A stretch of DNA of 64,000 bases. Source: Oscillospiraceae bacterium. GTDB taxonomy: Bacteria; Bacillota; Clostridia; Oscillospirales; Ruminococcaceae. This document shows positions 1,008-63,238 of the stretch, piece by piece; position 1 is the stretch's first letter, and every line of letters begins with the position of its first letter. The notes beneath the pieces are model-generated. The model was given only the letters and a program-made list of their open reading frames with translations. It did not search any database and was not told where the DNA came from. The stretch lies in assembly GCA_009777415.1 (NCBI GenBank), contig WRLX01000002.1:231-64230 (forward strand). The letters are read 5' to 3'. The position numbers were made by a program, and so were the translations under genes.

Positions 1008-1103
1008 CAGAAAGGGTAAGGGTAAAATTTTGAAAGTGAATCTGCGTAAATGCGGAAAACGAAACTTTCAAAAGACGCTTATTCAGAAAGGGCAAGGGTA
1101 AAA
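1008..1103 (+). repeat. RBS-associated repeat family A (box-core-box, period 76)
   Basis: CAGAAAGGG(T/C)AAGGGTAAAA at 1008 and 1084 flank core TTTTGAAAGT-GAATCTGCGTAAATGCGGAAAACGAA-ACTTTCAAAA; ends 2 nt before rplB ATG. Confidence 0.95.
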
Positions 1104-1105
1104 AA

Positions 1106-1939
1106 ATGGCAATCAAATTTTATAAGCCAACTACGCCGGGACGCAGAGGTATGTCGGTTGTGGACTATTCGGGTCTTTCCAAGGTTAAGCCCGAAAAAAG
1201 CCTTTTGACACCTGTAAAAAAACATTCGGGACGCAGTGCGGGCGGTGAGATTACCGTAAGGCACAAGGGCGGCGGGAACAGAAGAAAATATAGAATCATT
1301 GATTTTAAGCGCAATAAATTGGATATGAATGCAACGGTTCTCACTTTGGAGTATGACCCTAATCGCACTTCGTTTATCGCTTTGGTAGAATACGAAGACG
1401 GCGAACGGCGATATATAATCGCACCCGATAAGTTGCAAGTAGGCGATATTGTACGCGCGGGAGCGGGTTCGGACATTAAAATCGGAAATGCGATGAAATT
1501 AATGGATATGCCTTTGGGTACCGTTGTTCACAATGTTGAGCTTTATCCGGGCAAAGGTGCTCAGTTGGTACGCAGTGCCGGAAACTCGGCACAGCTTATG
1601 GCGAAGGAAAATAACATGGCGTTGCTCAGACTGCCCAGCGGTGAGTTGCGGAATGTATCGGCTAAGTGTATGGCCACTATTGGGGTGGTGTCGAATCCCG
1701 ACCACGGGAACGTCAACCTCGGTAAAGCTGGAAGAGTTCGCCATATGGGTATTAAGCCTACTGTACGCGGCTCGGTAATGAATCCCTGTGACCACCCGCA
1801 TGGTGGCGGTGAGGGAAAATCACCTGTCGGCAGACCGGGACCTGTAACTCCGTGGGGTAAACCTGCGCTGGGATACAAAACCCGTAAATCCAACAAAAGT
1901 TCCGACAAGCTGATTGTTAAACGTCGCGGCAAGAAATAA
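1106..1939 (+). CDS. rplB: 50S ribosomal protein L2
   Basis: EYDPNR and [13 protein letters not shown] motifs. Confidence 0.98.
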
Positions 1940-1947
1940 CTGAAAAT

Positions 1948-1967
1948 TGCGGAAAGGGCATAGGTAA
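1948..1967 (+). repeat. Family A box only (no core) before rpsS
   Basis: TGCGGAAAGGGCATAGGTAA resembles the SD box of the family. Confidence 0.55.
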
Positions 1968-1973
1968 TTCATT

Positions 1974-2249: not shown

Positions 2250-2296
2250 GGTTGCAGGCCTTTTTTCAGAACTTATTTATTGAGGAGAATGTAGAA

Positions 2297-3561: not shown

Positions 3562-3632
3562 TAGAACTTATCCCGGCAATTATAGGTATATTTGTTAAAA
3601 TTTCCTGTGAGAAGCCTATGAGGAGGACTAAA

Positions 3633-4300: not shown

Positions 4301-4305
4301 GGGAA

Positions 4306-4572: not shown

Positions 4573-4605
4573 GGTATATTGACAGAGCGAATTATCGGAA
4601 TTTAA

Positions 4606-4684
4606 GAGTTTGAAAATTAAGAAAGGGCGAACACCGTGTGCAAACGATTCATTGTTGTGCAGGGTAGGCGCATGGTCATAAAAG
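4606..4684 (+). repeat. Repeat family B copy 1, before rplN
   Basis: GTTTGAAAATTAAGAAAGGGCGAACACCGTGTGC...TTGTGCAGGGTAGGCGCATGGTCATAAAA; aligns by eye with 50974-51058 and 53201-53284. Confidence 0.7.
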
Positions 4685-6946: not shown

Positions 6947-7027
6947 AAGTTTGAAAGTAAATCTGCGTAAATGCGGAAAACGAGGCTTTCAACGGCACAT
7001 TTGTGCAGAAGGGGCATGGGTAAAAAA
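6947..7027 (+). repeat. Family A single unit before rplF
   Basis: AAGTTTGAAAGTAAATCTGCGTAAATGCGGAAAACGAGGCTTTCAACGGCACATTTGTGCAGAAGGGGCATGGGTAAAAAA then ATG. Confidence 0.95.
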
Positions 7028-7589: not shown

Positions 7590-7668
7590 AAAAGTTTGAA
7601 CTCAATCCGTTGTGAATTGTGAAAATTAACTTTTATGGCGAATTTGTGTAGGAGGTCATTGGTAAATT
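7590..7668 (+). repeat. Degenerate family A unit before rplR
   Basis: AAAAGTTTGAA...GAAAATTAACTTTTATGGCGAATTTGTGTAGGAGGTCATTGGTAAA colinear with the consensus. Confidence 0.65.
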
Positions 7669-8606: not shown

Positions 8607-8687
8607 AAGGTTTGGAAGTGGAATTTGCGTAAGTGCGGAAAACGAAACTTTCATGATGTTTTTGTGCAGGAAGGGAATGGGTGAAAA
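8607..8687 (+). repeat. Family A single unit before rpmD
   Basis: AAGGTTTGGAAGTGGAATTTGCGTAAGTGCGGAAAACGAAACTTTCATG...TTTGTGCAGGAAGGGAATGGGTGAAAA. Confidence 0.9.
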
Positions 8688-10890: not shown

Positions 10891-10918
10891 TAAATGCGGA
10901 AAGGGCAAGAGTAAAATA
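10891..10918 (+). repeat. Family A remnant (core fragment fused to box) before adk
   Basis: TAAATGCGGAAAGGGCAAGAGTAAAA then ATG. Confidence 0.65.
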
Positions 10919-12914: not shown

Positions 12915-13004
12915 TTTGTGCAGAAAAAATTTGGAAAAAATTGAAAGTAAATCTGTGTAAATGCTTTCAGTCGCACGTTTGTGCAGAAAGGGCATGGGAA
13001 AGAA
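12915..13004 (+). repeat. Family A unit with internal deletion before rpmJ
   Basis: TTTGTGCAGAAA...TTGAAAGTAAATCTGTGTAAATGC[del]TTTCAGTCGCACGTTTGTGCAGAAAGGGCATGGG. Confidence 0.88.
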
Positions 13005-13547: not shown

Positions 13548-13608
13548 AAGGTTTGAAAGCATGCGGCTTTCAAACGCACGTCTGTGCAGAAAGGGCATGG
13601 GTAAAAAA
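13548..13608 (+). repeat. Minimal family A unit before rpsK
   Basis: GTTTGAAAGC-ATGCG-GCTTTCAAAC perfect 10-bp hairpin, then GCACGTCTGTGC and the box. Confidence 0.9.
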
Positions 13609-15471: not shown

Positions 15472-15742
15472 CGAATTTCTACGGTTTATCGATGCAATAT
15501 TGGAAAGGGTTCAACACTGAATACCAATCCTTGTGCGAGCGGAAAACGAATTTCTGCGGTTTATTGACACAATATTGGAAAGGGTTCAACACTGAATACC
15601 AATCCTTGTGCGAGCGGAAAACGAATTTCTGCGGTTTATCGACACAATATTGGAAAGGGTTCAACACTGAATACCAATCCTTGTGCGAGCGGAAAACGAA
15701 TTTCTGCGGTTTATTGACACAATATTGGAAAGGGGTAAATGT
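15472..15742 (+). repeat. 75-bp tandem array (~3.5 copies) before rpoA; divergent family A variant
   Basis: CGAATTTCT recurs at 15472, 15547, 15622, 15697; each unit has GCGGAAAACGAA and GGAAAGGG; the last box serves as the rpoA SD. Confidence 0.93.
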
Positions 15743-16717: not shown

Positions 16718-16738
16718 GAATATCGCCGGGTGCATTTC

Positions 16739-16785
16739 GAAAAATCAGTTTATGGCACTTTTGTGCAGAAAGGGCATGGTTAAAC
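16739..16785 (+). repeat. Partial family A unit before rplQ
   Basis: TTTATGGCACTTTTGTGCAGAAAGGGCATGGTTAAAC then ATG. Confidence 0.85.
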
Positions 16786-17630: not shown

Positions 17631-17703
17631 CTCCCCAAGCTGGACTCGAACCAGCGACCCTTCGGTTAACAGCCGAATGCTCTACCGACTGAGCTATTGA
17701 GGA
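17631..17703 (-). tRNA. tRNA-Asn (GTT)
   Basis: TCCTCAATAGCTCAGTCGGTAGAGCATTCGGCTGTTAACCGAA...GGTTCGAGTCC; cloverleaf. Confidence 0.96.
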
Positions 17704-17746
17704 ACATTTTTACAAATTACAACCATACAAAAACCTAACTGTCATA

Positions 17747-17817
17747 AGGCGTCACCCGGATTTGAACCGGGGATCAAGGTGTTGCAGACCTATGCCTTAC
17801 CACTTGGCTATGACGCC
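17747..17817 (-). tRNA. tRNA-Cys (GCA)
   Basis: GGCGTCATAGCCAAGTGGTAAGGCATAGGTCTGCAACACCT...GGTTCAAATCC. Confidence 0.96.
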
Positions 17818-20943: not shown

Positions 20944-20954
20944 GCACGACAAAA

Positions 20955-21048
20955 GCTATTTCCCTACGGCGGCATTATCCGCATCAGGTCATAGGTCGAA
21001 ACGTCAATCCGTTTCCTCTCAGCCGAAACATCAGCTCCCTGTAATTGT
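20955..21048 (-). ncRNA. TPP riboswitch
   Basis: GGGAGCTG...GGCTGAGAGG...GACCTGATGCGGATAATGCCGCCGTAGGGAA. Confidence 0.93.
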
Positions 21049-21104
21049 TATTTTAACACACTTTTGGCAGCTTGTCAAGCGTTTTTTACAAATTTTCACA
21101 AAAT

Positions 21105-25793: not shown

Positions 25794-25865
25794 CAGGGGC
25801 GTAGGGACTCGAACCCTGAACAACGGTTTTGGAGACCGTCATGTTACCAATTACACCACGCCCCT
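25794..25865 (-). tRNA. tRNA-Trp (CCA)
   Basis: AGGGGCGTGGTGTAATTGGTAACATGACGGTCTCCAAAACCGT...GGTTCGAGTCC. Confidence 0.96.
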
Positions 25866-26018: not shown

Positions 26019-26191
26019 AGAAAGGGCAAGGGTAAAACTTTGAGAATCAGTCCATGGTAAATGGGAAAACGAAACTTTAATAAAGAAATTGTATAGAAAG
26101 GGCAAGGGTAAAACTTTGAGAATCGGTCCATGGTAAATGGGAAAACGAAACTTTGATAAAGAAATTGTATAGAAAGGGCAAGGGTAAAAAT
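26019..26191 (+). repeat. Family A array (2 cores, 3 boxes, period 76) before recA
   Basis: AGAAAGGGCAAGGGTAAAA at 26019, 26095, 26171. Confidence 0.95.
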
Positions 26192-29448: not shown

Positions 29449-29588
29449 TGTGTAAATACGGAAAACGAAACTTAAAAAGCATACTTGCTTAGAAAGGAAA
29501 AGGGTAAAAACCTGTAAAGAAAATCTGCGTAAATGCGGAAAACGAAGCTTAAAAAGCATACCTGATTAGAAAGGAAAAGGGTAAAAGA
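29449..29588 (+). repeat. Family A array (~1.7 units, period 77)
   Basis: AGAAAGGAAAAGGGTAAAA at 29491 and 29568; core AAATCTGCGTAAATGCGGAAAACGAA. Confidence 0.92.
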
Positions 29589-31632: not shown

Positions 31633-31732
31633 TCTTTTTACCCTTGCCCTTTCTGCACAAATGTGCCGTTGAAAGCTTCGTTTTCCGCATTTACGCAGAT
31701 TTACTTTCAAACTTTTTACCTTTGCCCTTTCT
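31633..31732 (-). repeat. Family A unit (box-core-box, period 78)
   Basis: Reverse complement is nearly identical to the rplF copy. Confidence 0.95.
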
Positions 31733-31767
31733 TCATAAAAATAAAGTGTTAAAACAAAAATAAAGTG

Positions 31768-32049
31768 TCAAACTAAATCAATTCCGTAACCGTAATAATT
31801 AAGCGGCTCTCTTAGTGGCGGGTGGTTTAAAATTGCCGATTGTTGTTCATGTGAACCAAAATATGGCTCGAATGAACCCATGTTATATGAACCCGGGTAC
31901 GAACCCATATAATATGAGCCGTACAAGTTAAACGAGCCGTTAAAGCTTAACCCGAACAAGCCCGACTGAAAATCACAATTCAGCGGTTCGGTATTTCCTG
32001 CTTTTTCATGCATCAAATCAATGTAATCTAACCAATGATAACTGTTCAT
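31768..32049 (-). CDS. Small GS[YF]-repeat peptide ending GYGIDLV
   Basis: GSF-GSY-GSY-GSY-GSF-GSH repeats; preceded by a repeat box with SD. Confidence 0.75.
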   Translation of the reverse strand: MNSYHWLDYIDLMHEKAGNTEPLNCDFQSGLFGLSFNGSFNLYGSYYMGSYPGSYNMGSFEPYFGSHEQQSAILNHPPLREPLNYYGYGIDLV

Positions 32050-32056: not shown

Positions 32057-32304
32057 CTTTTTACCCATGCCCTTTCTGTATGAATGTGTTAAGAAATCTT
32101 CGTTTTCCGCATTTCCGCAGATTTATTTTCAGGCTTTTTACCCATGCCCTTTCTGTATAAATGCGTTAAGAAATCTTCGTTTTCCGCATTTCCGCAGATT
32201 TATTTTCAGGCTTTTTACCCATGCCCTTTCTGTATAAATGCGTTAAGAAATCTTCGTTTTCCGCATTTCCTCAGATTTATTCTCAGGCTTTTTACCCATG
32301 CCCT
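32057..32304 (-). repeat. Family A array (3 cores, 4 boxes, period 77)
   Basis: TTACCCATGCCC on + at 32061, 32138, 32215, 32292. Confidence 0.96.
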
Positions 32305-32312
32305 ATTCGGGA

Positions 32313-34823: not shown

Positions 34824-34976
34824 TATTTTACCCATGACCTTTCTGCACAAACGTGCCATAAAGTTTTATTTTCCCATTTACGTAGATTTATTTTCAAACT
34901 TTTACCCATGACCTTTCTGCACAAACGTGCCATAAAATTTCATTTTCCCATTTACGTAGATTTGTTTTCAAACTTT
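34824..34976 (-). repeat. Family A array (2 units, period 74); 5' end overlaps the upstream stop codon
   Basis: Fills the whole alpha-beta intergenic space; AAAGTTTGA reads K-V-stop of the alpha gene. Confidence 0.93.
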
Positions 34977-36023: not shown

Positions 36024-36075
36024 TATTTTACCCTTGTCCTTTCTGCACAAATGTGCTAAAAAATTTCATTTTCCT
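36024..36075 (-). repeat. Partial family A unit
   Basis: GGAAAATGAAA...GCACATTTGTGCAGAAAGGACAAGGGTAAAATA then ATG. Confidence 0.85.
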
Positions 36076-37006: not shown

Positions 37007-37135
37007 CAAAAAAATTTTTACACAAAATATAAAAAAGTATTGAAATGTTAAATAAATTATGTTATAATGTACATAATTTACATAAATTATTTAAATGTAT
37101 GTTATAACATACCAAAATTTAGGAGGATACTCACC

Positions 37136-40100
37136 ATGAAAACAATGAAAAAAAGATTAATCTCGGTTATGCTGACCTGCGCTGTGTTCCTGTCGGTTTT
37201 GCCCGCAATTACGGGCTTTTCCGAAGTCGGGGGCGTTTCGGATTCGCCGTCGGCGACTCTATTGTCGGAGTCGTTGCCGTTCCGTTGCGGTGACTTAGAC
37301 GGAAACGGCACTGTTGACATTTTCGACACGCTTGAAACTTTGAAGTACATTGTAAACATGAACTCGACCATCACCCACATCCTCGCAACGTGGGACGGGG
37401 TTGACAATCGCGCAAAATCAAGACGCGCATCGATTCTCACGACTGCGAAGCGTGAAGGTCTTGACCCGGACGACATTCCGGACACTGTCGGCCCGGACAT
37501 ATTCGACACGCTGGAAACTCTGAAGTACATCGTAAACATGGATACACAGGAAATGTGCGAAAACGGCTGTGATTGGGACAGTCCCGACGAAAACGGATGC
37601 ACTGCCATCGGCTGTAACAACAGTGACTGCCTTGAACCCGTAGTGGTTGATTTGGGTACTGTATTGCCGCCACCGACCGGGGAGGTTTCGAGCGATTTCA
37701 GAAACTTGACCGCCAAGCAGTTAGTCAGCGAGATGCGGGCAGGGTGGAATCTCGGCAACACCTTTGATGCACACCGCGGCGGGCAGGAAATCGGTCACTC
37801 ACTCGTTACAATAAACGGAACTGCGGGAGGAGTCCGCGCTGTTGAGACAATGTGGCTTCCCGAAGAAATACAGATTCCGGGGCAGACGGCGGGAAGAATC
37901 GCCAATGCGACAACCCGCACTCTTATTCGAGAAGTCAGGCGGCAAGGTTTTGACACTATAAGAATACCCGTGTCATGGTATAAAGCCGTTGACCCCAATG
38001 ATGATTATAAGATTCACCCAAGTTTCATGGCGCGTGTTAAAGAGGTTGTGGACTGGGCAGTTAACGAGGATATGTATGTAATCCTCAATGTTCACCACGA
38101 TGATTACATTATGCCGATTTCTTTCGTTGACATGGAGGCTGCCGCAAATCCGCAAGGGCGGAGACCCGCGCAGCCAATTAAAGCCGAGGACAAGGAATTC
38201 ACCGAGATGTACCTAAGGCGGATTTGGGAGCAGATTTCCGAAGTATTTAACAATGATTACAATGAAAAGCTGATTTTTGAAGGGGTCAACGAACCCCGTA
38301 CTATCGGTTCAATCGGCGAATGGTCGGGCGGAACTGACCATGAACGCGAAATGGTAAACCGTTTAGGCGAGGTTTTTGTAGAGACTGTGAGAGATTCGGG
38401 CGGAAATAACGCTTACAGAATCTTAATGGTGCCTACTTATGCGGCGGCATCGAGCGATTCGGCATTCAACGGGTTCAGAATCCCTGCCGATACTGAAGAA
38501 AACACATCCGAATACACTTATACAAGCCCCACGGGAGTTGTTACCGAAAGTGAATCATCGCACAAAATTGCGATTTCTGTCCATGCTTATGTACCAGGTC
38601 CGTTTGCGTTAGCCGCGACTACCGTGCATTGGAGAGCTGATGTCCCGTCGGACACCGGGCCGATAGATGCCGCACTCAACCGAGTCAGAAATAATGCCGA
38701 CAGAATGGGCGCCGCGGTTATTCTCGGTGAATGGGGTTCTCCGAATCAATGTTTAGGCGAGGGTGCTTGTGCTGATAGCGAGGGCGGATGCAAGCGCGTA
38801 AACTGTGTACGAAGCAATACCGAGGCGCGGGCGGCTCATGCAAGGTATTACGTCAGAGCGGCACGTGAACGCGGAATGGTGACATCATGGTGGGATAACG
38901 GAGCGATTATTCCCGCCGAAAAAACAACCAATCCTTCCCACACATACGCATTGTTTACCAGACAGTCTATCGCGCCTAATATGCAGGGTGTTCACGTTTC
39001 ACCCCGCCTTAACCTCCCTTGGATAATAGAATCAATCCTCTGCGGCGCAGGGCCGGAACGCGATAAGCTTGACACGGGAAACACCCTGTCTAATCAGTTT
39101 AACACTGATGCCGTATTAGGTGACTATTCTGCTTCCGCCGCGCAGGCTTATGACATTTTCGATGTTTTGGAGATTCTTAAATCTATAGTCGGCATGAGCG
39201 AGCTTACCGATTTTGAAAAAGAAGTGTACACTTTTAACGGAAATGAAGGCTCACCCAACATTTTTGACGCACTTGAGATTCTGAAAGACATTGTGGGTAT
39301 GCTGAATCCGCCGTTAGTACGCAATATGCCTAAAATCCCGCCTACCGAGTCTGACGGGCTTGCAACTTCAAAGGCAGGCGGGGCATGGATTGAAACCGAT
39401 GGACGGTGGAGACCGATGTCCGATGAATGGAATCGCGATATACACTGGAATCCCCCGGGAGCGGGCATGGACTGGGTTGAAAACGAAGACGGCACATGGG
39501 AATCCCCTAACGGCGATATAACCACCACGTCTGCGGCGACTTCTGCCGCTACACCCGCTTCGTCTTCTCAGGCAACAATCCAAACAACACCTGTTTCGAC
39601 TACCATTTTGACTACTACTACACCTGTTACGGTTACTACGAATAATGCGACACCTCCGCCTGTGCCGACTTCTGCGGCAACTACCGTATCGGCGACATTC
39701 CCCAATACCACAACCGTGACAACAGTGCTTACTCCGACTACGACAACAAGTATACCGATAGTTACAACCGCTCATTCGACAACTCTTGCAATTACCCCTA
39801 CCTCGCCGCCGATAACAACAACTCCGTTTACTCCGACTTCTACTCCGTCGGTGACGACTGTAGTCACTCCTGCCGTGACGACAACAATCACTCCCGCTGT
39901 AACAACAACGATTGTACAAACTACGGTTAATCCCGTAGTTACCACAACTGCACCCACATCCGCAACAACTGCGGCGGGGACGACTGTGTCTGCAATTGCA
40001 ACCACTTCTACGGGTGCTGTTACAACAGGCGCGATTAATCCCACGGGAGTTCTCTATGATATGCAAAATGACCCGGATTTGGACAAAGCACGTTCGGGCG

Positions 40101-42253
40101 GCGGCTCAATGTCGTTCCTGCAAGGCTCAAGCGGCGAGCGTTCTGTTCAGATGAGCGCAAACCCGCGGACTATAACGATTATCCAAAGCGGAAACAGCAA
40201 CGGCATGGATATTAAGTTAGCGGATTTGAACGCAAAACCTAACCACTCATACACGTTTGAAATTGGCGGAACGTACAGCGGCTCACAATTGAGGTTTACT
40301 AAAGAAGGCGGCACTGCAAGGGCTTTGACAACCAATCCCGCTACCGTTTCGGGCGGCACTTTCTCATTTACTCATACTGCCGATTATGCTACGATTGTTT
40401 CGGACCTTGCCGATAATGCTCAGGCAAGATACCGAATAAGCAGCCCTTCGGGAATTATCGGTACAATGGTGATTAACAAGATTATAGTTACCGAAATACC
40501 TTTAGGGGGCGGAACAACTCCCGCAGTGACCACCGTAACTCCCGCGGTGACTACAGCAACTCCCGCAATAACTACAACCGTGCCCGTCACAATCACAACC
40601 GTGCCTGTGACAACTTCATCATCGGTTGTAACGACTGCTGCGACTACGACTGCACAAACGAGATTTACGATTACTTTTAACCATAACTACTCGGGAAGCC
40701 CCTCAAGCTTTAACGTGCAGACAAACGGAACAGGCAGGATTAACTCTGCCGACTTCCCCGCCGCACCTACGAGAACAGGGTATACCTTTGCAGGTTGGTT
40801 TGATACCTCGTCTTCAAGCGGAGGAAACCAAATAATCGCCGGTTCATCAACGGGAACGCAGTTTAACTCTAATACGACTGTTTTTGCGAGATGGACTGCT
40901 GTATCGGCTACAAGGTATACAATCACGTTAAATCCGCAAAGCGGGGCTGTTTCACCGACAACAATACAAACTCGTGACGCTAATGCAAACGGAGTTGCCA
41001 CTCTTCCGACGGGCGAACTCCCTATTCCTACAAGAAACGGATACACTTTTGTAGGTTGGTTCACGTCTGCGAGCGGCGGAACTCAAATAACAGACGGTTC
41101 GGGGGGTTCTACTTTTACCGCTAATACCACTATTCATGCGAGATGGGTTGATAATTCCACCGGGGGCGGGTTTAGGGACATTACCGCTTCGCAGTTAGTT
41201 AGTGAAATCGGTGTCGGTTGGAATTTGGGTAACACCCTTGACGCATATCCGAATGAGTCTTCATGGTCAGTACCGAATACTACAAAAGCGACTATTGACG
41301 GAGTAAAAGCCGCCGGATTCAATACAATCAGAATCCCGATTACATGGCATCCGCATATTAGCGGGAGCGGCTCAAGCGCGACTATCAGCTCTTCCAGAAT
41401 GAACCGCGTTAAACAAATTGTGGACTGGGCAGTTGCAAACGATATGTATATCATAATCAACACTCACCATGATGAAGACATTTTCTCAGTTACCACAAGT
41501 AGCTCTACCCCTGCGAATACTTTGTCCGCTGTTTGGACACAGATTGCGAACACATTTAAGGATTATAACGAGAAGTTGATTTTTGAGGGGCTTAATGAGC
41601 CGCGCGACACTAAAGGCACAAAGGATAACAGCGACGATGACTGGTACGGCACTACTACGCTGCACGAAAGACTTAATACTCTTAATCAGGCTTTTGTTTC
41701 CGCAGTAAGAGCTACAGGCGGCAACAACGCGAGAAGAGTTCTTATGGTTCCCACTTATGCGGCAAGCGGGCAGGCGTGGAATAATCAAAGCCCTTTCCAC
41801 GGTTTCAAAAAGCCTACCGATACTGTTGCAAACAAATTGGTTCTTTCGGTTCACAGGTATGAGCCTAATGAATTCACATTGTATGCGCAGAGCAGAACGT
41901 GGTCGGAATCAGGTGTAAGAACCGCTCTCGAGCTTATTGCAAATGCATCTAAAACAAGCTCGACAAACGTAAATCTCGGCAATTACAGTATTACAATGCC
42001 TGGATTGGGTATGCCGATAATTCTCGGCGAATGGGGTGCGACTAACCAAAACAACGAGGCAGAAAGAGCGAGATATGCCGAGTTTTATGTCAAAGAGGCG
42101 ACAAGGCTCGGAATGAGAACGGTTCTGTGGGATAACGGCGTTTCGGCAACCGCAACGGGCAGTGAAATGCACGCGTATATTAACAGGAGTAACGGCAATA
42201 TTCACTCAAATGCTGTGTCGATTATTGAGGCGATTAAAAAAGGTCGCGGATAA
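37136..42253 (+). CDS. Secreted multimodular double-GH5 (GH5_4-like) endoglucanase with two dockerin-like modules, Thr-rich linkers and two InlB B-repeat-like domains
   Basis: Two sets of GWNLGNT/IRIP/HH/NEP/GEWG/WDNG; GDLDGNGTVDIFD dockerin-like pair; PTRxGYTFxGWF twice; SD AGGAGG before ATG 37136. Confidence 0.9.
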   Translation: MKTMKKRLISVMLTCAVFLSVLPAITGFSEVGGVSDSPSATLLSESLPFRCGDLDGNGTVDIFDTLETLKYIVNMNSTITHILATWDGVDNRAKSRRASILTTAKREGLDPDDIPDTVGPDIFDTLETLKYIVNMDTQEMCENGCDWDSPDENGCTAIGCNNSDCLEPVVVDLGTVLPPPTGEVSSDFRNLTAKQLVSEMRAGWNLGNTFDAHRGGQEIGHSLVTINGTAGGVRAVETMWLPEEIQIPGQTAGRIANATTRTLIREVRRQGFDTIRIPVSWYKAVDPNDDYKIHPSFMARVKEVVDWAVNEDMYVILNVHHDDYIMPISFVDMEAAANPQGRRPAQPIKAEDKEFTEMYLRRIWEQISEVFNNDYNEKLIFEGVNEPRTIGSIGEWSGGTDHEREMVNRLGEVFVETVRDSGGNNAYRILMVPTYAAASSDSAFNGFRIPADTEENTSEYTYTSPTGVVTESESSHKIAISVHAYVPGPFALAATTVHWRADVPSDTGPIDAALNRVRNNADRMGAAVILGEWGSPNQCLGEGACADSEGGCKRVNCVRSNTEARAAHARYYVRAARERGMVTSWWDNGAIIPAEKTTNPSHTYALFTRQSIAPNMQGVHVSPRLNLPWIIESILCGAGPERDKLDTGNTLSNQFNTDAVLGDYSASAAQAYDIFDVLEILKSIVGMSELTDFEKEVYTFNGNEGSPNIFDALEILKDIVGMLNPPLVRNMPKIPPTESDGLATSKAGGAWIETDGRWRPMSDEWNRDIHWNPPGAGMDWVENEDGTWESPNGDITTTSAATSAATPASSSQATIQTTPVSTTILTTTTPVTVTTNNATPPPVPTSAATTVSATFPNTTTVTTVLTPTTTTSIPIVTTAHSTTLAITPTSPPITTTPFTPTSTPSVTTVVTPAVTTTITPAVTTTIVQTTVNPVVTTTAPTSATTAAGTTVSAIATTSTGAVTTGAINPTGVLYDMQNDPDLDKARSGGGSMSFLQGSSGERSVQMSANPRTITIIQSGNSNGMDIKLADLNAKPNHSYTFEIGGTYSGSQLRFTKEGGTARALTTNPATVSGGTFSFTHTADYATIVSDLADNAQARYRISSPSGIIGTMVINKIIVTEIPLGGGTTPAVTTVTPAVTTATPAITTTVPVTITTVPVTTSSSVVTTAATTTAQTRFTITFNHNYSGSPSSFNVQTNGTGRINSADFPAAPTRTGYTFAGWFDTSSSSGGNQIIAGSSTGTQFNSNTTVFARWTAVSATRYTITLNPQSGAVSPTTIQTRDANANGVATLPTGELPIPTRNGYTFVGWFTSASGGTQITDGSGGSTFTANTTIHARWVDNSTGGGFRDITASQLVSEIGVGWNLGNTLDAYPNESSWSVPNTTKATIDGVKAAGFNTIRIPITWHPHISGSGSSATISSSRMNRVKQIVDWAVANDMYIIINTHHDEDIFSVTTSSSTPANTLSAVWTQIANTFKDYNEKLIFEGLNEPRDTKGTKDNSDDDWYGTTTLHERLNTLNQAFVSAVRATGGNNARRVLMVPTYAASGQAWNNQSPFHGFKKPTDTVANKLVLSVHRYEPNEFTLYAQSRTWSESGVRTALELIANASKTSSTNVNLGNYSITMPGLGMPIILGEWGATNQNNEAERARYAEFYVKEATRLGMRTVLWDNGVSATATGSEMHAYINRSNGNIHSNAVSIIEAIKKGRG

Positions 42254-42275: not shown

Positions 42276-42450
42276 AGAAAGGAATGGGGTAAAAGTTTGA
42301 AAATAAATCTGCGTGAGTGCGGAAAACGAAACTTTAAGTGGCACATTTGTGCAGAAAGGTATGGTGTAAAAGTTTGAAAATAAATCTGCGTGAGTGCGGA
42401 AAACGAAACTTTAAGTGGCACGATTGTGCAGAAAGGTATGGTGTAAAAAT
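42276..42450 (+). repeat. Family A array (2 cores, 3 boxes, period 77)
   Basis: AGAAAGG at 42276, 42353, 42430. Confidence 0.96.
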
Positions 42451-48722: not shown

Positions 48723-48823
48723 TGTGCGGGAAGGGTATAGGTAAAAACATTGAAAATAAATCTGAGGTTGTGCGGGAAACGCACTTTTATGGCTATTCAA
48801 CGCCGGAAGGGAATGGTGTAAAA
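48723..48823 (+). repeat. Family A unit (box-core-box, period 76)
   Basis: GGAAGGG at 48729 and 48805; core TTGAAAATAAATCTGAGGTTGTGCGGGAAACGCACTTT resembles the 55228 variant. Confidence 0.88.
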
Positions 48824-50683
48824 ATGGAGAAATTCAAGTTTACAAGCGATGTAATGGAAATTTTGAATAATTGTAAGGGGGTTACGATTCCCGAAACGCG
48901 AAAAGAGTTGATAGAGCTTGCGCTGAACGGGACTGACGAGTTTACGGTCAGTTATGAAGTTGACGGAAAAATGCGGGATGAAGCGATTGTGACCCGCTGT
49001 AAAAACGGCGTGGTAATTAATTATACCGACCCGTATATGCGCAGAAGAGACCCCGACTGCCTTATTGTAGGCGATGACAAGGCGACTGACAAGCCGCGGT
49101 ATTCCGAGATGTTCGGCAAGGATTTCGGCGAGCTTAGGAAAGAAACTTTTGAATGGCTTAAACAGCAGGAACTGCTTGTTGTCCCGGTAATGGTCGGCGG
49201 CGATGAATACGGTTATCCTGTGGTTTTGATTGCGCCGAAAAATGCGGGATTTTTCGCCTGCGGATTGAGCGATTTGCAATATTTTACGAATATTGCCGAG
49301 TACGACGGTGTTTTTGAGCCTGTGGTTAATATTTACCTTGTTCCGCCGTTTAGACACACACACTTTGACGGAAAGCAGATAGTCGTACATAATCGACTTG
49401 ACGAGGTTTACGAGCTGCTTTCTTATAATCTTTATCCCGGGCCGAGTGCGAAAAAGGGACTTTACGGATTCCTGCTTGATGTCGGCGAACGTGAAGGGTG
49501 GATTACTGCACACACCTCCGCAGTTAAAATTGTAACACCTTATGAAAATGAAATTGTTATGATGCATGAGGGTGCGTCCGGCGGCGGGAAAAGCGAAATG
49601 AGCGAACACGTTCACCGTGAACCCGACGGAAGAATCCATGTGGGGACAAACATAGTGACTAAAGAGGATTTTTACCTCCGATTGGAAGAACCATGTGAAT
49701 TGCATCCAATTGCCGATGACATGGCAATGTGCCATCCGAAAATGCAAAACGACAGCAAGAAGTTAGTTATTAAGGACGTTGAGGCGGGCTGGTTCGTGCG
49801 GGTTGACCATATCAAGGAGTATGGGACTGACCCGCATTTGGAAAAGTCTTGCATTCAGCCGGATGAACCGCTTGTATTTATGAGTATGCAAGCACAGCCG
49901 AACTCCACCGTGCTTATTTGGGAGCATACAATTGATGAAGACACCAATAAACCCTGCCCTAATCCGCGCGTAATTTTGCCGCGCAGAATGATTCAAAATA
50001 TAATCGATGCGCCCGCCGAAGTCGATATAAGGAGCTTTGGCGTGAGGACACCGCCGTGTACAATGGAAGTCCCCACATACGGGATTATGGGGTTAATGCA
50101 CATTTTGCCGCCCGCTTTGGGGTGGTTGTGGCGGTTGGTTGCGCCGAGGGGACACGCTAACCCAAGTATAGTCGATAAGGGCGGAATGACAAGCGAGGGA
50201 ATCGGCTCATATGGGTATTTCTTAACGGGTTCGGTAGTAAAACAAGCGAATTTGCTTTTGGAACAGGTATTGAACACTTTGAACACCCGCTATGTTCTAA
50301 TCCCCAATCAGCATATCGGCTGTTACGATGTCGGATTCAAGCCCCAGTGGATTGCCCGCGAATACATTGCAAGACGAGGGAGCGCGCGATTCCGCAGAGA
50401 GAGTTTGATTGAGGCGCGTTGCCCGTTATTGGGGTACGGTTTGAGCAAACTCAAGGTTGACGGGCAGCTTGTGAGAAAAGCATTCCTGCAACCTGAAACG
50501 CAATCGGAAATAGGGCTTGAAGGCTATGACAAGGGGGCGAAAATCCTTTCCGACTTCTTTAAATCGGAGCTGAAAAAGTTTGACACTCCCGAGCTTGACC
50601 CGTTGGGTAAGAAAATCCTCGATTGTTGTATGAATGATGGTTCGCTTGAGGATTATATCGCATTGATTCCTATAAAGTTGTAG
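48824..50683 (+). CDS. DUF4914 family protein (PEP carboxykinase-like P-loop)
   Basis: YMRRRDP, NLYPGPSAKKG, HEGASGGGKSEM, DDMA, CPNPRVI. Confidence 0.8.
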   Translation: MEKFKFTSDVMEILNNCKGVTIPETRKELIELALNGTDEFTVSYEVDGKMRDEAIVTRCKNGVVINYTDPYMRRRDPDCLIVGDDKATDKPRYSEMFGKDFGELRKETFEWLKQQELLVVPVMVGGDEYGYPVVLIAPKNAGFFACGLSDLQYFTNIAEYDGVFEPVVNIYLVPPFRHTHFDGKQIVVHNRLDEVYELLSYNLYPGPSAKKGLYGFLLDVGEREGWITAHTSAVKIVTPYENEIVMMHEGASGGGKSEMSEHVHREPDGRIHVGTNIVTKEDFYLRLEEPCELHPIADDMAMCHPKMQNDSKKLVIKDVEAGWFVRVDHIKEYGTDPHLEKSCIQPDEPLVFMSMQAQPNSTVLIWEHTIDEDTNKPCPNPRVILPRRMIQNIIDAPAEVDIRSFGVRTPPCTMEVPTYGIMGLMHILPPALGWLWRLVAPRGHANPSIVDKGGMTSEGIGSYGYFLTGSVVKQANLLLEQVLNTLNTRYVLIPNQHIGCYDVGFKPQWIAREYIARRGSARFRRESLIEARCPLLGYGLSKLKVDGQLVRKAFLQPETQSEIGLEGYDKGAKILSDFFKSELKKFDTPELDPLGKKILDCCMNDGSLEDYIALIPIKL

Positions 50684-50973: not shown

Positions 50974-51058
50974 AAGTTTGAAAAATAAGAAAGTAAGAAC
51001 CACCATGCCGCGAGTTTAATTGGGTTTTGTGCAAGGTTGGGCGGCATGGTCATAAAAA
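50974..51058 (+). repeat. Repeat family B copy 2 (no downstream gene)
   Basis: AAGTTTGAAAAATAAGAAAG...CACCATGCCGC...TTGTGCAAGGTTGGGCGGCATGGTCATAAAA. Confidence 0.7.
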
Positions 51059-51093
51059 CGGACAATAGGCATTTGACTATTGTCCGTTTTTAT
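51052..51093. terminator. Hairpin overlapping the xerC stop codon
   Basis: ATAAAAACGGACAATAG / CTATTGTCCGTTTTTAT 17-bp inverted repeat. Confidence 0.7.
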
Positions 51094-52117
51094 CGGTTTT
51101 GTTCACATCAGACAGTGGATTATTATTTATTGCCTGTCTCATTTGTTCATTCGCCACATGAGTATAAATTTGGGTAGTGCCGAGGTTCTCATGACCGAGG
51201 ACTTCTTTTAATACACGAATGTCCACGCCGTTGCGATACATTAAAGTCGCGGCGGTGTGTCTTAATTTATGAACCGAGAATCCGAGACCGTCCAATCCGC
51301 AGACTCGGAGCTTTTCGGCAATAATCTGCTCGACCCGCCTCCCGGTAATGCGGGTGTACCGTTTGCTCAGGAACAACGCCTTTTCATGTCTTGCTCTCTC
51401 GTTCTCGTCGCAAAGCTGATTCCGCTTATCAATATATTTTTCATGGGATAATGCGCAGGCGGAATTAAGGTAAACAATCCGCTCTTTGTTCCCCTTGCCT
51501 GTTACCCTTATGTAATACAACGGCTCACCCGTAATCGCACAAAGCTCTTTCTTATAGTCCTGCAAATTAAGTCCCACAAGCTCATTGAGCCTCATCCCGC
51601 AGTTGAGAAAAAAAGTCATAATGCAATAGTCGCGTACAGCCATCCAGTTCTCGCTGTCATAGTCGCAGGTTGAAAGCAATTGCATCGCTTGCTCCAAAGT
51701 GAGCGATTTTGGGAGGGGCGGTTTTGCACCGGGCATTTCAAGGTTTTGCGCAGGGCTGACCTCAAACCATTGCTTGTTATTTGTCAGGTATTTGAAAAAC
51801 TGCCGAATTGCAACGGCTCTGCGCGCTCTTGCTTTGAGCGTATTGCTCCTTTCCCCTGCAAGATAATGCAGAAATTCAAGAACATCGTAAAGCACGACGC
51901 CTTTAATAAGCTCGGCGGGAAAGTCGTCAACCTCAATTTCCTCAAAGTCCACATCTTTTGGCGCGAGATTGTGCTTGACCTTCAAAAAACGCAAAAAGGA
52001 CTTTAAATCATGAAAGTAGCTTATTACAGTGTTTTGAGAACGCCCCTTTATAGTCGAAAAATAATCGAGGAATTCCCGCAGAAATTGAGGAATCTCGTTT
52101 TTATTATAATTATACAA
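51077..52117 (-). CDS. xerC: Tyrosine recombinase, XerC/XerD-like
   Basis: RD...GMRLNEL, GKGNKER, HKLRHT, LGHENLGTTQIY. Confidence 0.85.
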   Translation of the reverse strand: MYNYNKNEIPQFLREFLDYFSTIKGRSQNTVISYFHDLKSFLRFLKVKHNLAPKDVDFEEIEVDDFPAELIKGVVLYDVLEFLHYLAGERSNTLKARARRAVAIRQFFKYLTNNKQWFEVSPAQNLEMPGAKPPLPKSLTLEQAMQLLSTCDYDSENWMAVRDYCIMTFFLNCGMRLNELVGLNLQDYKKELCAITGEPLYYIRVTGKGNKERIVYLNSACALSHEKYIDKRNQLCDENERARHEKALFLSKRYTRITGRRVEQIIAEKLRVCGLDGLGFSVHKLRHTAATLMYRNGVDIRVLKEVLGHENLGTTQIYTHVANEQMRQAINNNPLSDVNKTDKNGQ

Positions 52118-55227: not shown

Positions 55228-55550
55228 AGGAAGGAATGGTGTAAAAGTTTGAAGATAAATCTGAGGTTGCGCGGAAAACGCACTTTCACGGCTCGTTGGA
55301 GCAGGAAAGGAATGGTGTAAAAGTTTGAAGATAAATCTGAGGTTGCGCGGAAAACGCACTTTCATGGCTCATTGGAGCAGGGAAGGAATGGTGTAAAAGT
55401 TTGAAGATAAATCTGAGGTTGCGCGGAAAACGCACTTTCACGGCTCATTGGAGCAGGGAAGGAATGGTGTAAAAGTTTGAAGATAAATCTGAGGTTGCGC
55501 GGAAAACGCACTTTCATGGCTCATTGGAGCAGGGAAGGAATGGTGTAAAA
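55228..55550 (+). repeat. Family A array (4 cores, 5 boxes, period 76) before rseP
   Basis: GGAATGGTGTAAAA at 55233, 55309, 55385, 55461, 55537. Confidence 0.97.
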
Positions 55551-56630: not shown

Positions 56631-57642
56631 ACGTATTGTTAAAGTCGGGGATTTGAATTTCGGCGGCGGCGAGATTTTTGTGCAATCCATGCTGAGTCTC
56701 CCCGTTGATGACATTGAGGGCAATGTATTACAGGCGGTGAGATTAGCCGAGGCGGGATGTGACGTAATAAGGCTCGCAATCCCTACGATAGCCGATGTGC
56801 GGTTGCTCCCCGCATTAAAACAAGCTGTACAAGCTCCGATAGTCGCCGATATACATTTTGACTACAAAATCGCGGTAGAATCGGTTATAGCAGGTGCGGA
56901 CAAAATTCGGATTAATCCGGGGAATATCGGCGATGCCGACCGTGTAAAGGCGGTTGTCACCGCTTGCAAAAACGCGGGAATCCCTATCAGAGTCGGCGTT
57001 AATTCGGGTTCGCTGAAAGGCGGAAGTATTGCTGAATCGGCGATTGAAAATGTCAGACTTCTTGAGAGGTTTGATTTTAATGATATAGTCGTATCGGTTA
57101 AATCATCGAGCGTTACCGCGACAATTGCGGCTTACCGTGAATTATTCGGGCGTATTCCTTACCCGTTGCACTTGGGAGTTACCGAAGCGGGTACGTATAA
57201 AAAAGGTGTAATTAAATCGGCAATCGGGATAGGCGCGCTTTTATGCGACGGAATAGGTGACACTATCAGAGTTTCGCTGAGTGCCGACCCTGTATTTGAG
57301 GTTGAGACGGCGATTGATATATTAAAAGCAGTGGGCAAGCGCAAAGGAGTAGAGATTATCTCCTGCCCCACCTGCGGCAGATGTAAAATAGATGTAGTTT
57401 CGTTAGCCGAGAAAGCGGAACAGATTGTTCAAGGCATAGACAAGCCGCTTAAAATTGCCGTAATGGGCTGTGCAGTAAACGGCCCGGGTGAATGTAAGGA
57501 TGCTGATTTCGGAATTACCGGCGGCGACGGAGTTGGACTGATATTTAAAAAAGGCGCAATAGTACGCAAGGTTGAGGAATCCGGGTTATTGCTTGAATTG
57601 ATGGAAATTTTAGAAGAGGAAAGGGCAAGGGTAAAAGAATGA
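56617..57642 (+). CDS. ispG: HMBPP synthase
   Basis: VADIHF, RINPGN, HLGVTEAG, GDTIRVSL, SCPTCGR, MGCAVNGPGE. Confidence 0.96.
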   Translation: MSVDKRIVKVGDLNFGGGEIFVQSMLSLPVDDIEGNVLQAVRLAEAGCDVIRLAIPTIADVRLLPALKQAVQAPIVADIHFDYKIAVESVIAGADKIRINPGNIGDADRVKAVVTACKNAGIPIRVGVNSGSLKGGSIAESAIENVRLLERFDFNDIVVSVKSSSVTATIAAYRELFGRIPYPLHLGVTEAGTYKKGVIKSAIGIGALLCDGIGDTIRVSLSADPVFEVETAIDILKAVGKRKGVEIISCPTCGRCKIDVVSLAEKAEQIVQGIDKPLKIAVMGCAVNGPGECKDADFGITGGDGVGLIFKKGAIVRKVEESGLLLELMEILEEERARVKE

Positions 57643-57720
57643 GATTAATTCGAAGTGAATGGGAAAACGAGTTTTTATGGCACGTTTGTGCAGAAAGGGC
57701 AAGGGTAAAAGAATGAGATT
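57619..57720 (+). repeat. Family A unit with a 28-bp direct repeat that includes the polC ATG (period 74)
   Basis: GAAAGGGCAAGGGTAAAAGAATGAGATT at 57619 and 57693. Confidence 0.93.
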
Positions 57721-60700: not shown

Positions 60701-61765
60701 ACAAAGCTTGACGAGTTGGGGCATGACGTTCCCACCCTGTACAAGCATTTGGGCGATATGACGGGGATTAAGATTGCCGATGTCCCTACCTCGGATGAAA
60801 AGGTAATGAAGCTGTTCACAAGCGCAAAGCCTTTGGGTTTATCCGAGGAATCCCCCCTGTTTCCGACAGGCACATACGGATTGCCCGAAATGGGGACTCC
60901 GTTTGTTATACAAATGCTTAAAGAAGCCAAGCCCAAGACATTCGCCGATTTATTACAAATATCGGGGCTTTCGCACGGAACTGACGTTTGGATAGGCAAT
61001 GCGCGGGACTTAATCGCATCGGGGCAGTGTACCATCTCCGAAGTTATCGGGACTCGCGATAATATCATGGTTTATTTAATGCAAAAAGGGATGCAACCCT
61101 CTTTGGCGTTTAAAATCACCGAGATTACCCGTAAGGGCGGAGCGGCAAAGGCCTTTAACGACGACATTTATGCGGCATTTAAAGAACACGATGTTCCCGA
61201 CTGGTATGTCGAGGCTTGTAAAAAAATCAAGTATATGTTCCCGAAAGCACACGCCGCCGCTTATGTAATGGGGGCGGTCAAGCTCGGTTGGTTCAAGGTC
61301 TACCGCCCTAAGGAGTTTTACTCCGCGGCTCTCATGCGGCACACCGAGAATATAGACGCGCCTGTTGTAATTAAAGGCAAGGAAGCGGTAAAAAAACGCT
61401 TGCTCGGGATTGAGTCATCGCCCGAAAAAACGCCTAAGGAAAGTGCCACCTATGACGCGCTGTTAATGGTTTATGAAATGCAGTTGCGCGGGATAAACCT
61501 GCTCCCCGCGTACTACAAGACTTCGCACCCCACACGTTATATTATTGAAGGTGACGGACTGCGCTTGCCTTATTCGGCTATTGACGGCTGCGGCGAGAAT
61601 GCGGCGAGGCGGCTGTACGAAGTCATTCAAAGCGGCGATTTTATCTGCATTGACGACATCGGCTCAAAATCGGGTCTTAATAAAACAGTTTTGGAAAAAC
61701 TTGTCCAAACAGAATTTTTCGGAGATTTACCCCAATCTGCGCAAATATCCTTGTTTGAACTTTGA
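57713..61765 (+). CDS. polC: DNA polymerase III PolC-type
   Basis: ELHLHTKMS PHP domain, DVETTG exonuclease, SRGSVGSS, PDIDLNFSGE, YMFPKAHA. Confidence 0.97.
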   Translation: MRLSHFFERVSPQIGDCELSSVLFDKRKGVLTLYVKAEDKIDFSQLTLAENTIKFFLGISDVRIIHEQNQSQEQAGSSSIPGKRPAENVVVITEKAPPPKSEPVSGESTAAIDGNILLGKKITIAPIPMENLAAQSEVVVSGEVFGKDSRVLKNGKTLTIISFTDKTSSAMMKFFTDSKKKTEAEKIIKSGMTLLVHGKYVFDDFEKTSIIEPVSIMQVEPELKTDDYDGEKRIELHLHTKMSDMDATNTAAEYVKRAYKWGHKAVAITDHGNVQAYPEAMYTYEGIMKSEPDADFKVIYGMEAYFVNDGKPLISEGGRFPFSGEFIVFDVETTGLSPGDCRITEIGAVKLRDMEIVEEFSTFVNPDVPIPDEVIKINGITNDMVKDAPYEKEAFEKLIEFCGGTSDAALIAHNAGFDTGFLRSGFARCGLDYNFAAIDTLALSRAATPDLKKHSLDSMVNHYKLGSFNHHRALDDARVTALLFKRIVSDAAKGRVLGRVADLNTVFGGIDVKKDKYYHLIILVKNKTGLKNLYKLISYSNLYYFHSKPRIPLSELVKHREGLLIGSACEQGELYQAALVGRSKQDLAEIAALYDFLEIQPTGNNAFLVRNGEIDSEFKLQLLNKKIYDLGKELDKPVVATGDVHFMNADDSVFREILQTGQGYKDADNQAPLFFRTTAEMLSEFDYLGEDGAREVVIDNPHKVAAMICHEEIRPIPKGEYRPYIEGAEEELVSLCRNRANALYQSEGQPLNNLISARMKRELDSIIKHKFSVLYIIAHKLVKKSEEDGYLVGSRGSVGSSFAAFLSGISEVNPLPPHYRCPKCRYTEFPGLPEIGSGFDLPEKQCPQCGEMLARDGHDIPFETFLGFDGDKAPDIDLNFSGEYQAQAHKYTEELFGKDNVFKAGTISAIQDKTAFGFVKKFLEGRGVTPNKAEINRLVAGCVGVKKTTSQHPGGMLVVPVGHEVYDFTPIQHPAEKTEGNIITTHFDYRALHDTITKLDELGHDVPTLYKHLGDMTGIKIADVPTSDEKVMKLFTSAKPLGLSEESPLFPTGTYGLPEMGTPFVIQMLKEAKPKTFADLLQISGLSHGTDVWIGNARDLIASGQCTISEVIGTRDNIMVYLMQKGMQPSLAFKITEITRKGGAAKAFNDDIYAAFKEHDVPDWYVEACKKIKYMFPKAHAAAYVMGAVKLGWFKVYRPKEFYSAALMRHTENIDAPVVIKGKEAVKKRLLGIESSPEKTPKESATYDALLMVYEMQLRGINLLPAYYKTSHPTRYIIEGDGLRLPYSAIDGCGENAARRLYEVIQSGDFICIDDIGSKSGLNKTVLEKLVQTEFFGDLPQSAQISLFEL

Positions 61766-61849
61766 GAAATATCAAAAAAATACCAAAGGTGGGAAATTAA
61801 ATTTTTAAAAAGAGTTTACTTTTGTGAAAATATATGATATATTAATATA

Positions 61850-63061
61850 ATGAGGTTAGCGGAATGGGTTTTTGAACCACATGAGGAAAATGAGAGTCTT
61901 GATATTTTTTTGCAAATAGTCCGCCTTTTACACGATTTGGGGAAAGGGGCGGGGACTGTTTCACCTGCGTTTTACGAGATTGACGATGACAACGATGTGA
62001 CTTTTGTTGACTCAAAGTCATTCGGGGAGTTTGAGTCGCCAGAGGATTACTCCGCGCCGGAAAGCGCGAACAAGAATGTGGGAGGCAATGGCGAAAAGCG
62101 AGATGTATTTTCGCTCGGCATACTGTTGCACTTTATTCTTTACCAAAAACTCTGCCCGATTGACAGGAATGTTGCTTTTACAGGTAAGTCTTTCTTAAAA
62201 TCCCGCAAAAAAGTTATCGAAACCTCGGCAATTAAAGCAGACGACTCAAAACAGGCATCGCTGTTAATGGAGCGTATGAGCTCTTATAATCCCGAATCTC
62301 GGCCAACATTAAAGGAAATTTTGGCAGTTTTGCAGTCAAATATGTGCAGATTTGGGATTGTCCGCGAAAATGTCCTGTCTAAGGAGCGGTACACCGAAAT
62401 AATCCGCTGTTTTTCCGAGAGAGATTCTTACAGATATACTCCCGAAAAAGAATATACCGTTGACTTGGTGACAATCGCGCCGCTTTCGTGCGAACCGTTG
62501 TTAATCCCGTTTAGGTTGGTCAAAAAGCAATATATACTCCCGGTGGCATACGGCAGTGAGGGGCGTTGGCACTGTGCCGAAAAAAAATCCGACGCACCCG
62601 ATTTCGAGGATTTTGCAAGCCCGGCAAACCATGAGAGTGCTTCCGATTTAGCGGGAGTCCATAAAGCGACTGCGGCATTGTACTTTTGCGACGCGGTTTA
62701 CGGGATTGAAGGGCATACTCTTTTTTGCGAGACTGACGGATATGCCTATCAAATGGGGCTTTATGTGCATAGCTACGGCAACGAGAGCAAAGTGATAAGC
62801 ATTTTTAAAGGGGGGGAGGTAGTCGTCCCCGAAAGGCTTGAAGCGCGAATCCTTTCGATATTGAGGGCGGGTTCCAAGGCTGTGTATGACTTGTTTTGCT
62901 TTGTATTATACGGCAAAAGCAATCCCGCCGTTATTAAGACAATCAATGACCTGTTCCCTGAGGCAGTACGCATTTATCATTTAGACGACAATGATATACT
63001 AAAAGGCGCGTCACTGTATTTGAACAGCCAAGGCAATAAAAAGAATCCGCTTTATAAATAA
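61850..63061 (+). CDS. Hypothetical protein with a degenerate protein-kinase C-lobe
   Basis: YSAPE...DVFSLGILL...RPT subdomains VIII-XI present; no GxGxxG, VAIK, HRD or DFG. Confidence 0.55.
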   Translation: MRLAEWVFEPHEENESLDIFLQIVRLLHDLGKGAGTVSPAFYEIDDDNDVTFVDSKSFGEFESPEDYSAPESANKNVGGNGEKRDVFSLGILLHFILYQKLCPIDRNVAFTGKSFLKSRKKVIETSAIKADDSKQASLLMERMSSYNPESRPTLKEILAVLQSNMCRFGIVRENVLSKERYTEIIRCFSERDSYRYTPEKEYTVDLVTIAPLSCEPLLIPFRLVKKQYILPVAYGSEGRWHCAEKKSDAPDFEDFASPANHESASDLAGVHKATAALYFCDAVYGIEGHTLFCETDGYAYQMGLYVHSYGNESKVISIFKGGEVVVPERLEARILSILRAGSKAVYDLFCFVLYGKSNPAVIKTINDLFPEAVRIYHLDDNDILKGASLYLNSQGNKKNPLYK

Positions 63062-63065
63062 TTAT

Positions 63066-63238
63066 CAGAAAGGGCAAGGAACAAACTTTGAGAATAAATC
63101 TAACAAATGCGGAAAACGAGGCTTTTAAAGTTACGTTTGTGCAGAAAGGGCAAGGAACAAACTTTGAGAATAAATCTAATAAATGCGGGAAACGAGGCTT
63201 TTAAAGTTACGTTTGTGCAGAAAGGGCAAGGGTAAAAG
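63066..63238 (+). repeat. Family A array (2 cores, 3 boxes, period 76)
   Basis: CAGAAAGGGCAAGG at 63066, 63142, 63218. Confidence 0.95.

Follow-up and report, generated by a model that had tools for sequence, protein, structure and literature searches.

IS900, an insertion sequence of the IS110 family from Mycobacterium avium subsp. paratuberculosis, reportedly targets translation initiation signals, as the title of Doran et al. 1997 has it. Its target motif is CATG-N6-TCTCCTT, and the available text of PMC8141618 describes 16-22 full-length copies per genome and an hed open reading frame (ORF) using the host ribosome-binding site (RBS), with no replacement Shine-Dalgarno (SD) sequence and no miniatures. 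The element studied here is a dispersed 76-bp repeat located directly upstream of start codons in a 64,000-nucleotide stretch of an Oscillospiraceae bacterium genome (contig WRLX01000002.1, positions 231 to 64,230; the whole stretch is called the window). With a probability of roughly 80%, this repeat is a non-autonomous, transposase-less derivative of an IS110 element that is aimed at translation starts, and it was probably moved in trans. The full-length IS110 partner resembles IS900 in targeting translation starts and in carrying its transposase antisense to the host gene, whereas the repeat differs from IS900, as the latter appears in that text, in being present as short derivatives in hundreds, arrayed and lying in essential operons.

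According to the available text of two papers, bridge-RNA recombinases of the IS621 type share with the partner the DEDD and Tnp domains, a 2-nt core, and target and donor guides in the non-coding end (PMC11208160; PMC11187229), and mini-elements reduced to the two ends are mobile if the recombinase and the RNA are provided in trans (PMC11187229). In contrast to IS621, the element described here has AA and not CT as core, a target composed of an SD and a start codon with a variable SD spacing of 0-5 nt, and two guide positions that vary widely between close elements. A word search of the body text of both papers found no mention of SD targets. The ssr9 module of ISPpu9 is, like the miniature, a natural non-autonomous passenger with IS110 end boxes, minicircles and some tandem copies, but the text available describes a handful of copies that encode a small RNA, target REP sequences and have no tie to start codons (PMC12288879). 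Non-coding ends of IS110 elements are clustered in a 2026 preprint that mentions neither start codons nor miniature inverted-repeat transposable elements in its main text (10.64898/2026.10.21.760802), and the accessible parts of PMC7823733 and PMC4607514 held nothing further for comparison. Neither the repeat family nor SD-supplying IS110 miniatures were described in the literature searched, which lay outside ISfinder, most subscription papers and the bridge-RNA supplements that possibly list this lineage, nor was any miniature family of comparable scale. The REP, BOX and RUP repeats are also short, dispersed, high-copy and intergenic, but they have no fixed-polarity position at start codons and have other mobilisers. 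The preliminary description of the window, made without database searches, had called the family unrecognised, which stands as far as Rfam is concerned (no match), whereas the principle was already known from IS900, whose target motif is the reverse complement of an SD and ATG (PMC8141618, in its available text).

Abundance of the repeat and its position before start codons

The genome holding the window (G000; 1.78 Mb, 162 contigs, 87% complete, with the window in contig C2) was scanned with a profile hidden Markov model (HMM) of the main family, built from 236 distinct units, and the reversed genome served as control. The scan returned 585 matches of at least 15 bits and none in the reversed genome, and the box, the end of the unit with the SD-like GAAAGG, occurred 587 times at up to 2 mismatches. 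Matches of at least 12 bits, by which arrays were defined, formed 376 arrays of 1-5 units with a total of 40,075 bp (about 2% of the assembly). A start codon was located directly 3' of 342 of these arrays; 4 lay at contig edges and 30 had no start codon, many of them because a sister element comes next. In the window, a box or unit was present at all 21 loci named in the preliminary description, at about the positions given there and always co-oriented with the downstream gene, and the gene names recA, rseP and polC were confirmed. PolC, together with the general appearance of the proteins, suggests a clostridial host.

Among 343 terminal boxes, 297 had a start codon no more than 15 nt downstream that opens a frame of at least 50 codons, compared to 7% of random positions, for which only ATG was counted. 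One fixed box-to-start spacing was found in 203 of the 297, and the 3' junction was fixed 2 nt before the ATG. A loose box motif matched 1268 times in G000 and 586 times in the control; stricter motifs were used for occupancy counts, the strict box occurring 843 times (25 in the reversed control). It was present at 130 of the 289 gene starts confirmed by an orthologue in the nearest relative, G449 (45%), and at 292 of 1324 starts on crude gene calls. Some arrays in G000 (contigs C24, C10, C33, C93 and C105) had the box but differed from the consensus in the core, and periods of half length (38-44 nt) were also seen there.

The box was predicted to pair with the 16S tail of a genus relative in a bulged duplex of -11.2 kcal/mol, compared to -10.8 kcal/mol for native SDs, and its SD was predicted to be unpaired at 0.72, compared to 0.48 for native SDs. 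The left end of the element is predicted to act as a replacement RBS, and the share of genes served in this way to be roughly between a quarter and a half. The earlier statement that the box holds the only SD-like GAAAGG of each gene was correct in that it is the only SD in range, but a native SD often survives about 80 nt upstream of the ATG. Calling the repeat structured proved too strong, since folding was weak (mean minimum free energy z-score of -0.77, with 12% of 60 sampled units below -2) and there was little covariation.

Full-length IS110 elements with the same end motifs

In 12 of the viral and order-level loci, the end shared by these repeats was identified as the left end of an IS110 element; the transposase gene is encoded on the other strand, its start lying about 310 nt inward from this end. 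On the strand of the host gene, the full element has the form SD-N(0-5)-AA-G(T/G)TTGAAA ... TTTCA-N-TT(T/G)GTGC-N-GAAAGG-N(8-9)-AA-NN-ATG. It is oriented opposite to the host gene, occupies the space between that gene's native SD and NN-ATG, and has the AA core at either end. Its transposase scored 239 bits with NF033542 (cut-off 140) and contains the domains PF01548 and PF02371 (DEDD RuvC and Tnp). Full-length elements were found in the genus members G489 and G475, and related ones with the same placement on Roseburia and Clostridium plasmids. The existence of a long copy with a mobility gene between the ends, raised in the preliminary description, was thus verified in relatives and phage contigs, but no cognate transposase was found in G000. 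All 12 contigs matching an empty phage site read SD-AA-AG-ATG, and the filled site (L357) has AA at both ends and retains AG; a second search for an empty IS110 site found nothing, and the comparison of filled with empty thus covers this one site.

The non-coding end contains, in order, a GGAGGTGA segment (the SD-reading guide, GGAGG), a segment complementary to AA-NN-AT and a segment that follows the right-end tip. This arrangement appears bridge-RNA-like, corresponding to the guide layout in the available text of PMC11208160. The right target guide was identical to the element's own pre-ATG NN in 19 of 22 distinct copies, six loci without a readable end or loop having been dropped; the shuffle mean was 2.6 and none of 20,000 shuffles reached 19, a significance which is overstated because the 22 copies are related. 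The donor guide followed the right-end tip through four variants (AACC, AAAC, AATC and AGAC). In the IS110 loci L344, L356, L358, L361, L370, L377, L379, L384, L395, L403, L404, L406, L407, L411, L416, L417, L421, L422, L424, L425, L429 and L435, two guide positions take at least 10 values among close elements and are nearly always those of the own target, even with an atypical core (L395 and L417), which fits diversifying selection; copying between target and guide could also account for it. In G561, all 13 IS copies listed share one NN.

The 76-bp repeats are likely miniatures of this element because they share end motifs with an IS110 that inserts between SD and start codon. The short elements of G000 and of other genomes carry the IS110 end motifs in the same order, and miniature and full element have the same target position and polarity. 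An HMM of IS left ends only gave 43 matches of at least 10 bits in G000 and 1 in the reversed genome; 41 of the 43 stood before an ATG or another unit, and they include main-family cores ending in the exact IS tip. In G475, a full IS110 lies directly before a main-family unit. These analyses support the earlier proposal of a non-autonomous element that targets or supplies translation-initiation regions, with an IS110-family transposon bearing the same end motifs as the probable mobiliser. The IS110 genes initially detected in G000, G445 and G024 belong to other lineages and were rejected as mobiliser; that of G000 (C153:330-1527, on a 2.9-kb contig) is 29% identical to the cognate transposase.

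Two sister families with unrelated cores occur in G000 (29 and 26 among the copies listed), and further ones in G449, G446, G018, G014 and others. All start with AAGTTTGAA and end in GAAAGG-N-ATGGTCATAA-NN-ATG or a variant of it. This shared 3' end was detected in 34 of 108 genus genomes and 39 of 301 order genomes (reversed-pattern controls 0), and also in 29 viral contigs. The exact 3' tip of the IS is present in the sister families and in some copies with the main core and has drifted in most main copies; the 5' tip is identical. Copies of family A from many loci are nearly identical to each other.

Of 400 genomes of the taxonomic family, only 2 contained the exact box, with 1-2 matches. 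The unit was detected in 8 of the 107 genus relatives and is numerous in G450, G445 and G447, but it was not found in the 1.58 Mb of G449 sequence compared. In the ribosomal-protein operon, profile matches stood before 8 of 26 genes in G000, 13 in G450, 5 in G445 and none in eight other genomes. When filled and empty orthologous sites, the comparison suggested in the preliminary description, were set side by side, occupancy was patchy, and at rplF, rplP and rplO the TTG of the element stands at the position of the native ATG of the short empty orthologue, behind GGGGG at rplF and at stop-start overlaps at rplP and rplO. A paralogue pair of G000 likewise shows the element TTG at the former ATG, the two bases before the ATG being retained, and upstream of first units a G-rich peak occurs at the same place as for native ATGs. 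By these site comparisons, the repeat behaves as a mobile insertion. The exact main-family motif gave 2 single matches, taken as chance, in the genome-contig database and 0 in viral contigs. A metagenome scan gave 43 loci, in which the units listed were short copies, and a bridge-RNA profile, the only transposase-related screen applied to them, had no match.

Proposed mechanism and competing explanations

In the mechanism proposed, a recombinase and a bridge RNA supplied in trans would insert the miniature at the AA four bases before the ATG, and the left end of the element would serve as a replacement SD, so that translation of the gene continues and insertions into essential operons persist. 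The left end would rebuild SD-AA-NN-ATG, and thus the site would stay a target. Arrays would expand by replication slippage between direct repeats. Solo boxes, able to overwrite the end of the upstream gene, would be left where the sequence from the native SD to the GAAAGG of the element is deleted. The junction between tandem units is identical to the donor junction of a circle, and therefore arrays might yield circles of 152 or 228 bp where one of 76 bp is too stiff. A total of 48 ORFs of at least 80 codons end inside a loosely defined box. The 22 box-ended ORFs with a G449 orthologue mostly have a replaced C-terminus, often at purine microhomology, examples being genes which we take, by sight of the sequence, to be cysE-, gatB- and recO-like. 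Dozens of G000 proteins end in KGQG, KGHG or KGMV (contigs C13, C27, C120, C4, C67 and others), since the TAA of the element became the stop codon.

Several results weigh against the IS110 origin and this mechanism. The cognate transposase and bridge-RNA region was not found in G000 (87% complete; best match 29% identity) or in the element-rich relatives G445, G450, G447 and G024. The main-family 3' tip is unlike that of every full element observed, and genome, viral and metagenome scans revealed no autonomous element bearing it. IS ends reach only about 3 bits with the main-unit HMM, and main units overlap only 10 of the 43 left-end matches: the likeness between main unit and IS110 is at motif level. 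Empty G449 orthologues of occupied genes had no significant enrichment of AA at -4/-3 (27 of 121 cases, compared to 23 of 150; p 0.16), and positions -8 to -1 were not conserved with G449. A genome-wide test of the deletion model was negative: native SDs of AAAGG type showed no excess in solo-box genes (15/38, compared to 36/83 and 54/150), and so the deletion step rests on individual examples. Median unit identity was 0.974 within arrays and 0.882 between loci, with closer identity within the array in 155 of 191 cases, which indicates that arrays are at least partly local duplications. Two later IS copies of G003 have a guide that mismatches their own NN. In addition, a 76-bp circle would be hard to bend.

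Part of this evidence is shared by the explanation that the ends derive from IS110 and the 76-bp family no longer transposes, passing instead from one translation start to another when short-patch recombination or gene conversion makes use of SD-like and start-codon microhomology. The lack of a cognate enzyme in G000 and the drifted 3' tip speak for it, as do the apparent 5' truncation of first units in 222 of 376 arrays, left junctions that often lie at purine microhomologies and replace native C-termini, TTG where G449 has ATG in 9 genes (the reverse in 5), and the finding that only 12% of units have a 97% identical copy at another locus. This explanation is nevertheless unlikely, as the fixed 3' junction is the one that IS110 core geometry predicts, family A shows near-identity at many loci, and absence from a draft genome is weak evidence because IS110 copies collapse at contig ends: pieces of the IS110 non-coding end were found at contig ends in G449 and G003, and 13 IS110 copies break contigs in G561. 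Loss of the IS110 from G000 through assembly is plausible. The alternative put forward earlier, a genome-wide cis-regulatory RNA cassette, here taken as selected by the host to coordinate housekeeping translation (as a riboswitch-like or protein-binding element or as a bicistronic leader), would fit the strict polarity and spacing, the occupancy of 45% of conserved starts, a conserved GGAAAACG motif that is not traceable to IS ends, and the mini-ORF frame of sister family B, kept in most copies up to a stop 2 nt before the gene. It did not find support and is highly improbable, since occupied sites differ between relatives, folding is weak with little covariation and no Rfam match, the SD is predicted open, the TTG frame of the main family is not conserved (spacing 54/55/56/57 in 61/31/107/86 of 301), and unrelated cores carry the same ends.

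The variable 5' truncation and fixed 3' end, together with small hairpins near the 3' end, would also be expected if the element were moved by a reverse transcriptase (RT) or an HUH enzyme (IS200/RAYT), but this can be given almost no credence: RVT_1 and Y1_Tnp were absent from G000, G445, G450, G447 and G449, and 30 RT and 30 Y1 loci of the genus lacked the element ends that IS110 loci have. Other candidates were rejected on separate grounds. No Y1 transposase gene flanked by the repeat was found, as for REP/RAYT or an IS200 PATE, and no RT gene bounded by repeat ends, as would be expected of a group II intron or another retroelement. No element ends adjoined the RT, Y1/RAYT, TnpB or tyrosine recombinase loci, except for a family B copy of the window beside a Xer-like gene. 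A riboswitch or other structured cis-regulatory RNA was dismissed for its want of covarying structure and Rfam match and for the variable occupancy, and an SD-sequestering switch, hinted at by RNAalifold, because individual ensembles leave the SD open. A conserved 23-aa leader peptide was discarded given that the main-family frame varies and only family B keeps the frame, and an altered anti-SD given that the genus relative has a standard 16S tail and native genes keep GGAG-type SDs (the 16S was not assembled in G000).

If the repeat is an IS110 miniature, it illustrates how a selfish element that brings along a replacement RBS can come to saturate essential operons, and its scale, in share of the assembly and of conserved starts, is far above the 16-22 copies of IS900. 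The start preference of IS900 type would gain a testable bridge-RNA basis, as the guides match the SD and the pre-ATG bases, and the element would provide a naturally occurring recombinase for delivering cargo to start codons, with an SD retained for the gene behind the insertion and many natural guide-target pairs available. A wider scenario is conceivable, although rather doubtful, in which an RNA-guided transposon reading SD and start codon rewrote initiation for up to half of the core genes, and dozens of C-termini, through self-retargeting miniatures, and the host now depends on the element end as a portable RBS cassette.

Repeat sites and other features of the window

The sites of the repeat in the window are given in Table 1. 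The duplicate of the polC start inside the polC-site unit is a sign of local slippage.

Table 1. Copies of the main repeat and of sister family B in the window, with the start codon that follows each.
Site	Coordinates	Strand	Start codon	Description
rplB	1007..1103	+	ATG 1106	solo box, then one full unit
rpsS	1952..1967	+	ATG 1974	box only
rplN	4606..4681	+	ATG 4685	sister family B copy, 3' end is the exact IS110 left-end tip; absent from the preliminary description
rplF	6947..7025	+	ATG 7028	one full unit downstream of native G-rich SD
rplR	7592..7665	+	ATG 7669	degenerate unit
rpmD	8608..8686	+	ATG 8693	one unit
adk	10895..10916	+	ATG 10919	box only
rpmJ	12937..13002	+	ATG 13005	unit with internal deletion
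rpsK	13548..13606	+	ATG 13609	shortened unit
rpoA	15472..15739	+	ATG 15743	array, period 75, units diverged yet near-identical to each other
rplQ	16732..16784	+	ATG 16786	5'-truncated unit
recA	26019..26189	+	ATG 26192	box and two units
gene at 29589	29449..29586	+	ATG 29589	partial and full unit
gene at 31632	31636..31739	-	ATG 31632	box and one near-consensus unit
gene at 32049	32059..32307	-	ATG 32049	box and three units
2-oxoacid oxidoreductase beta-like gene	34826..34975	-	ATG 34823	two units downstream of native G-rich SD
VorB	36026..36074	-	ATG 36023	5'-truncated unit
gene at 42451	42276..42447	+	ATG 42451	box and two units
gene at 48824	48729..48821	+	ATG 48824	box and one variant-subfamily unit
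sister family B copy	50974..51055	+		exact IS110 left-end tip, then ACG instead of a start codon (exception)
rseP	55228..55548	+	ATG 55551	box and four units
polC	57619..57710	+	ATG 57713	box and unit; first 12 bases of the unit duplicate the polC start
gene at 63239	63067..63237	+	ATG 63239	box and two units

In family B copies, such as the two in the window, an internal SD and ATG open an ORF of 6-33 codons that stops 2 nt before the host ATG, with the frame kept across most length variants, and a 10-bp inverted repeat pairs with the box; from the sequence, translational coupling is possible. The startless family B copy adjoins a tyrosine recombinase gene similar to XerC/XerD (51077-52117, minus strand), which scored under the curated XerC and XerD cut-offs.

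Three runs of one termite gut metagenome study provided RNA contigs, and two of them held exact 200-460 nt pieces of the window. None of the RNA pieces listed spans an element, and the RNA contigs are therefore uninformative on expression; the IS110 appeared in them only as short, diverged pieces. The window also contains a 1728-aa ORF (37067-42253) with repeated DIFD(T/A)LE..KYIV.M units, presumably dockerin-like, and, on the minus strand, a TPP riboswitch and three tRNAs (20944-21052, 17631-17817 and 25794-25865). Elsewhere in G000, a gene on C65 and six paralogues constitute a seven-member family with a shared signal-peptide-like N-terminus, one member having the element at its start. Other short palindromic repeats (GTAG-led hairpins, hairpins ending GCTTGAC, and ACAATTG and TAATTAT runs) were observed in L083-L095, L122 and contigs C57 and C88 of G000; no Y1 transposase was present in the five genomes tested, and these repeats fill intergenic spacers and nest inside miniatures.

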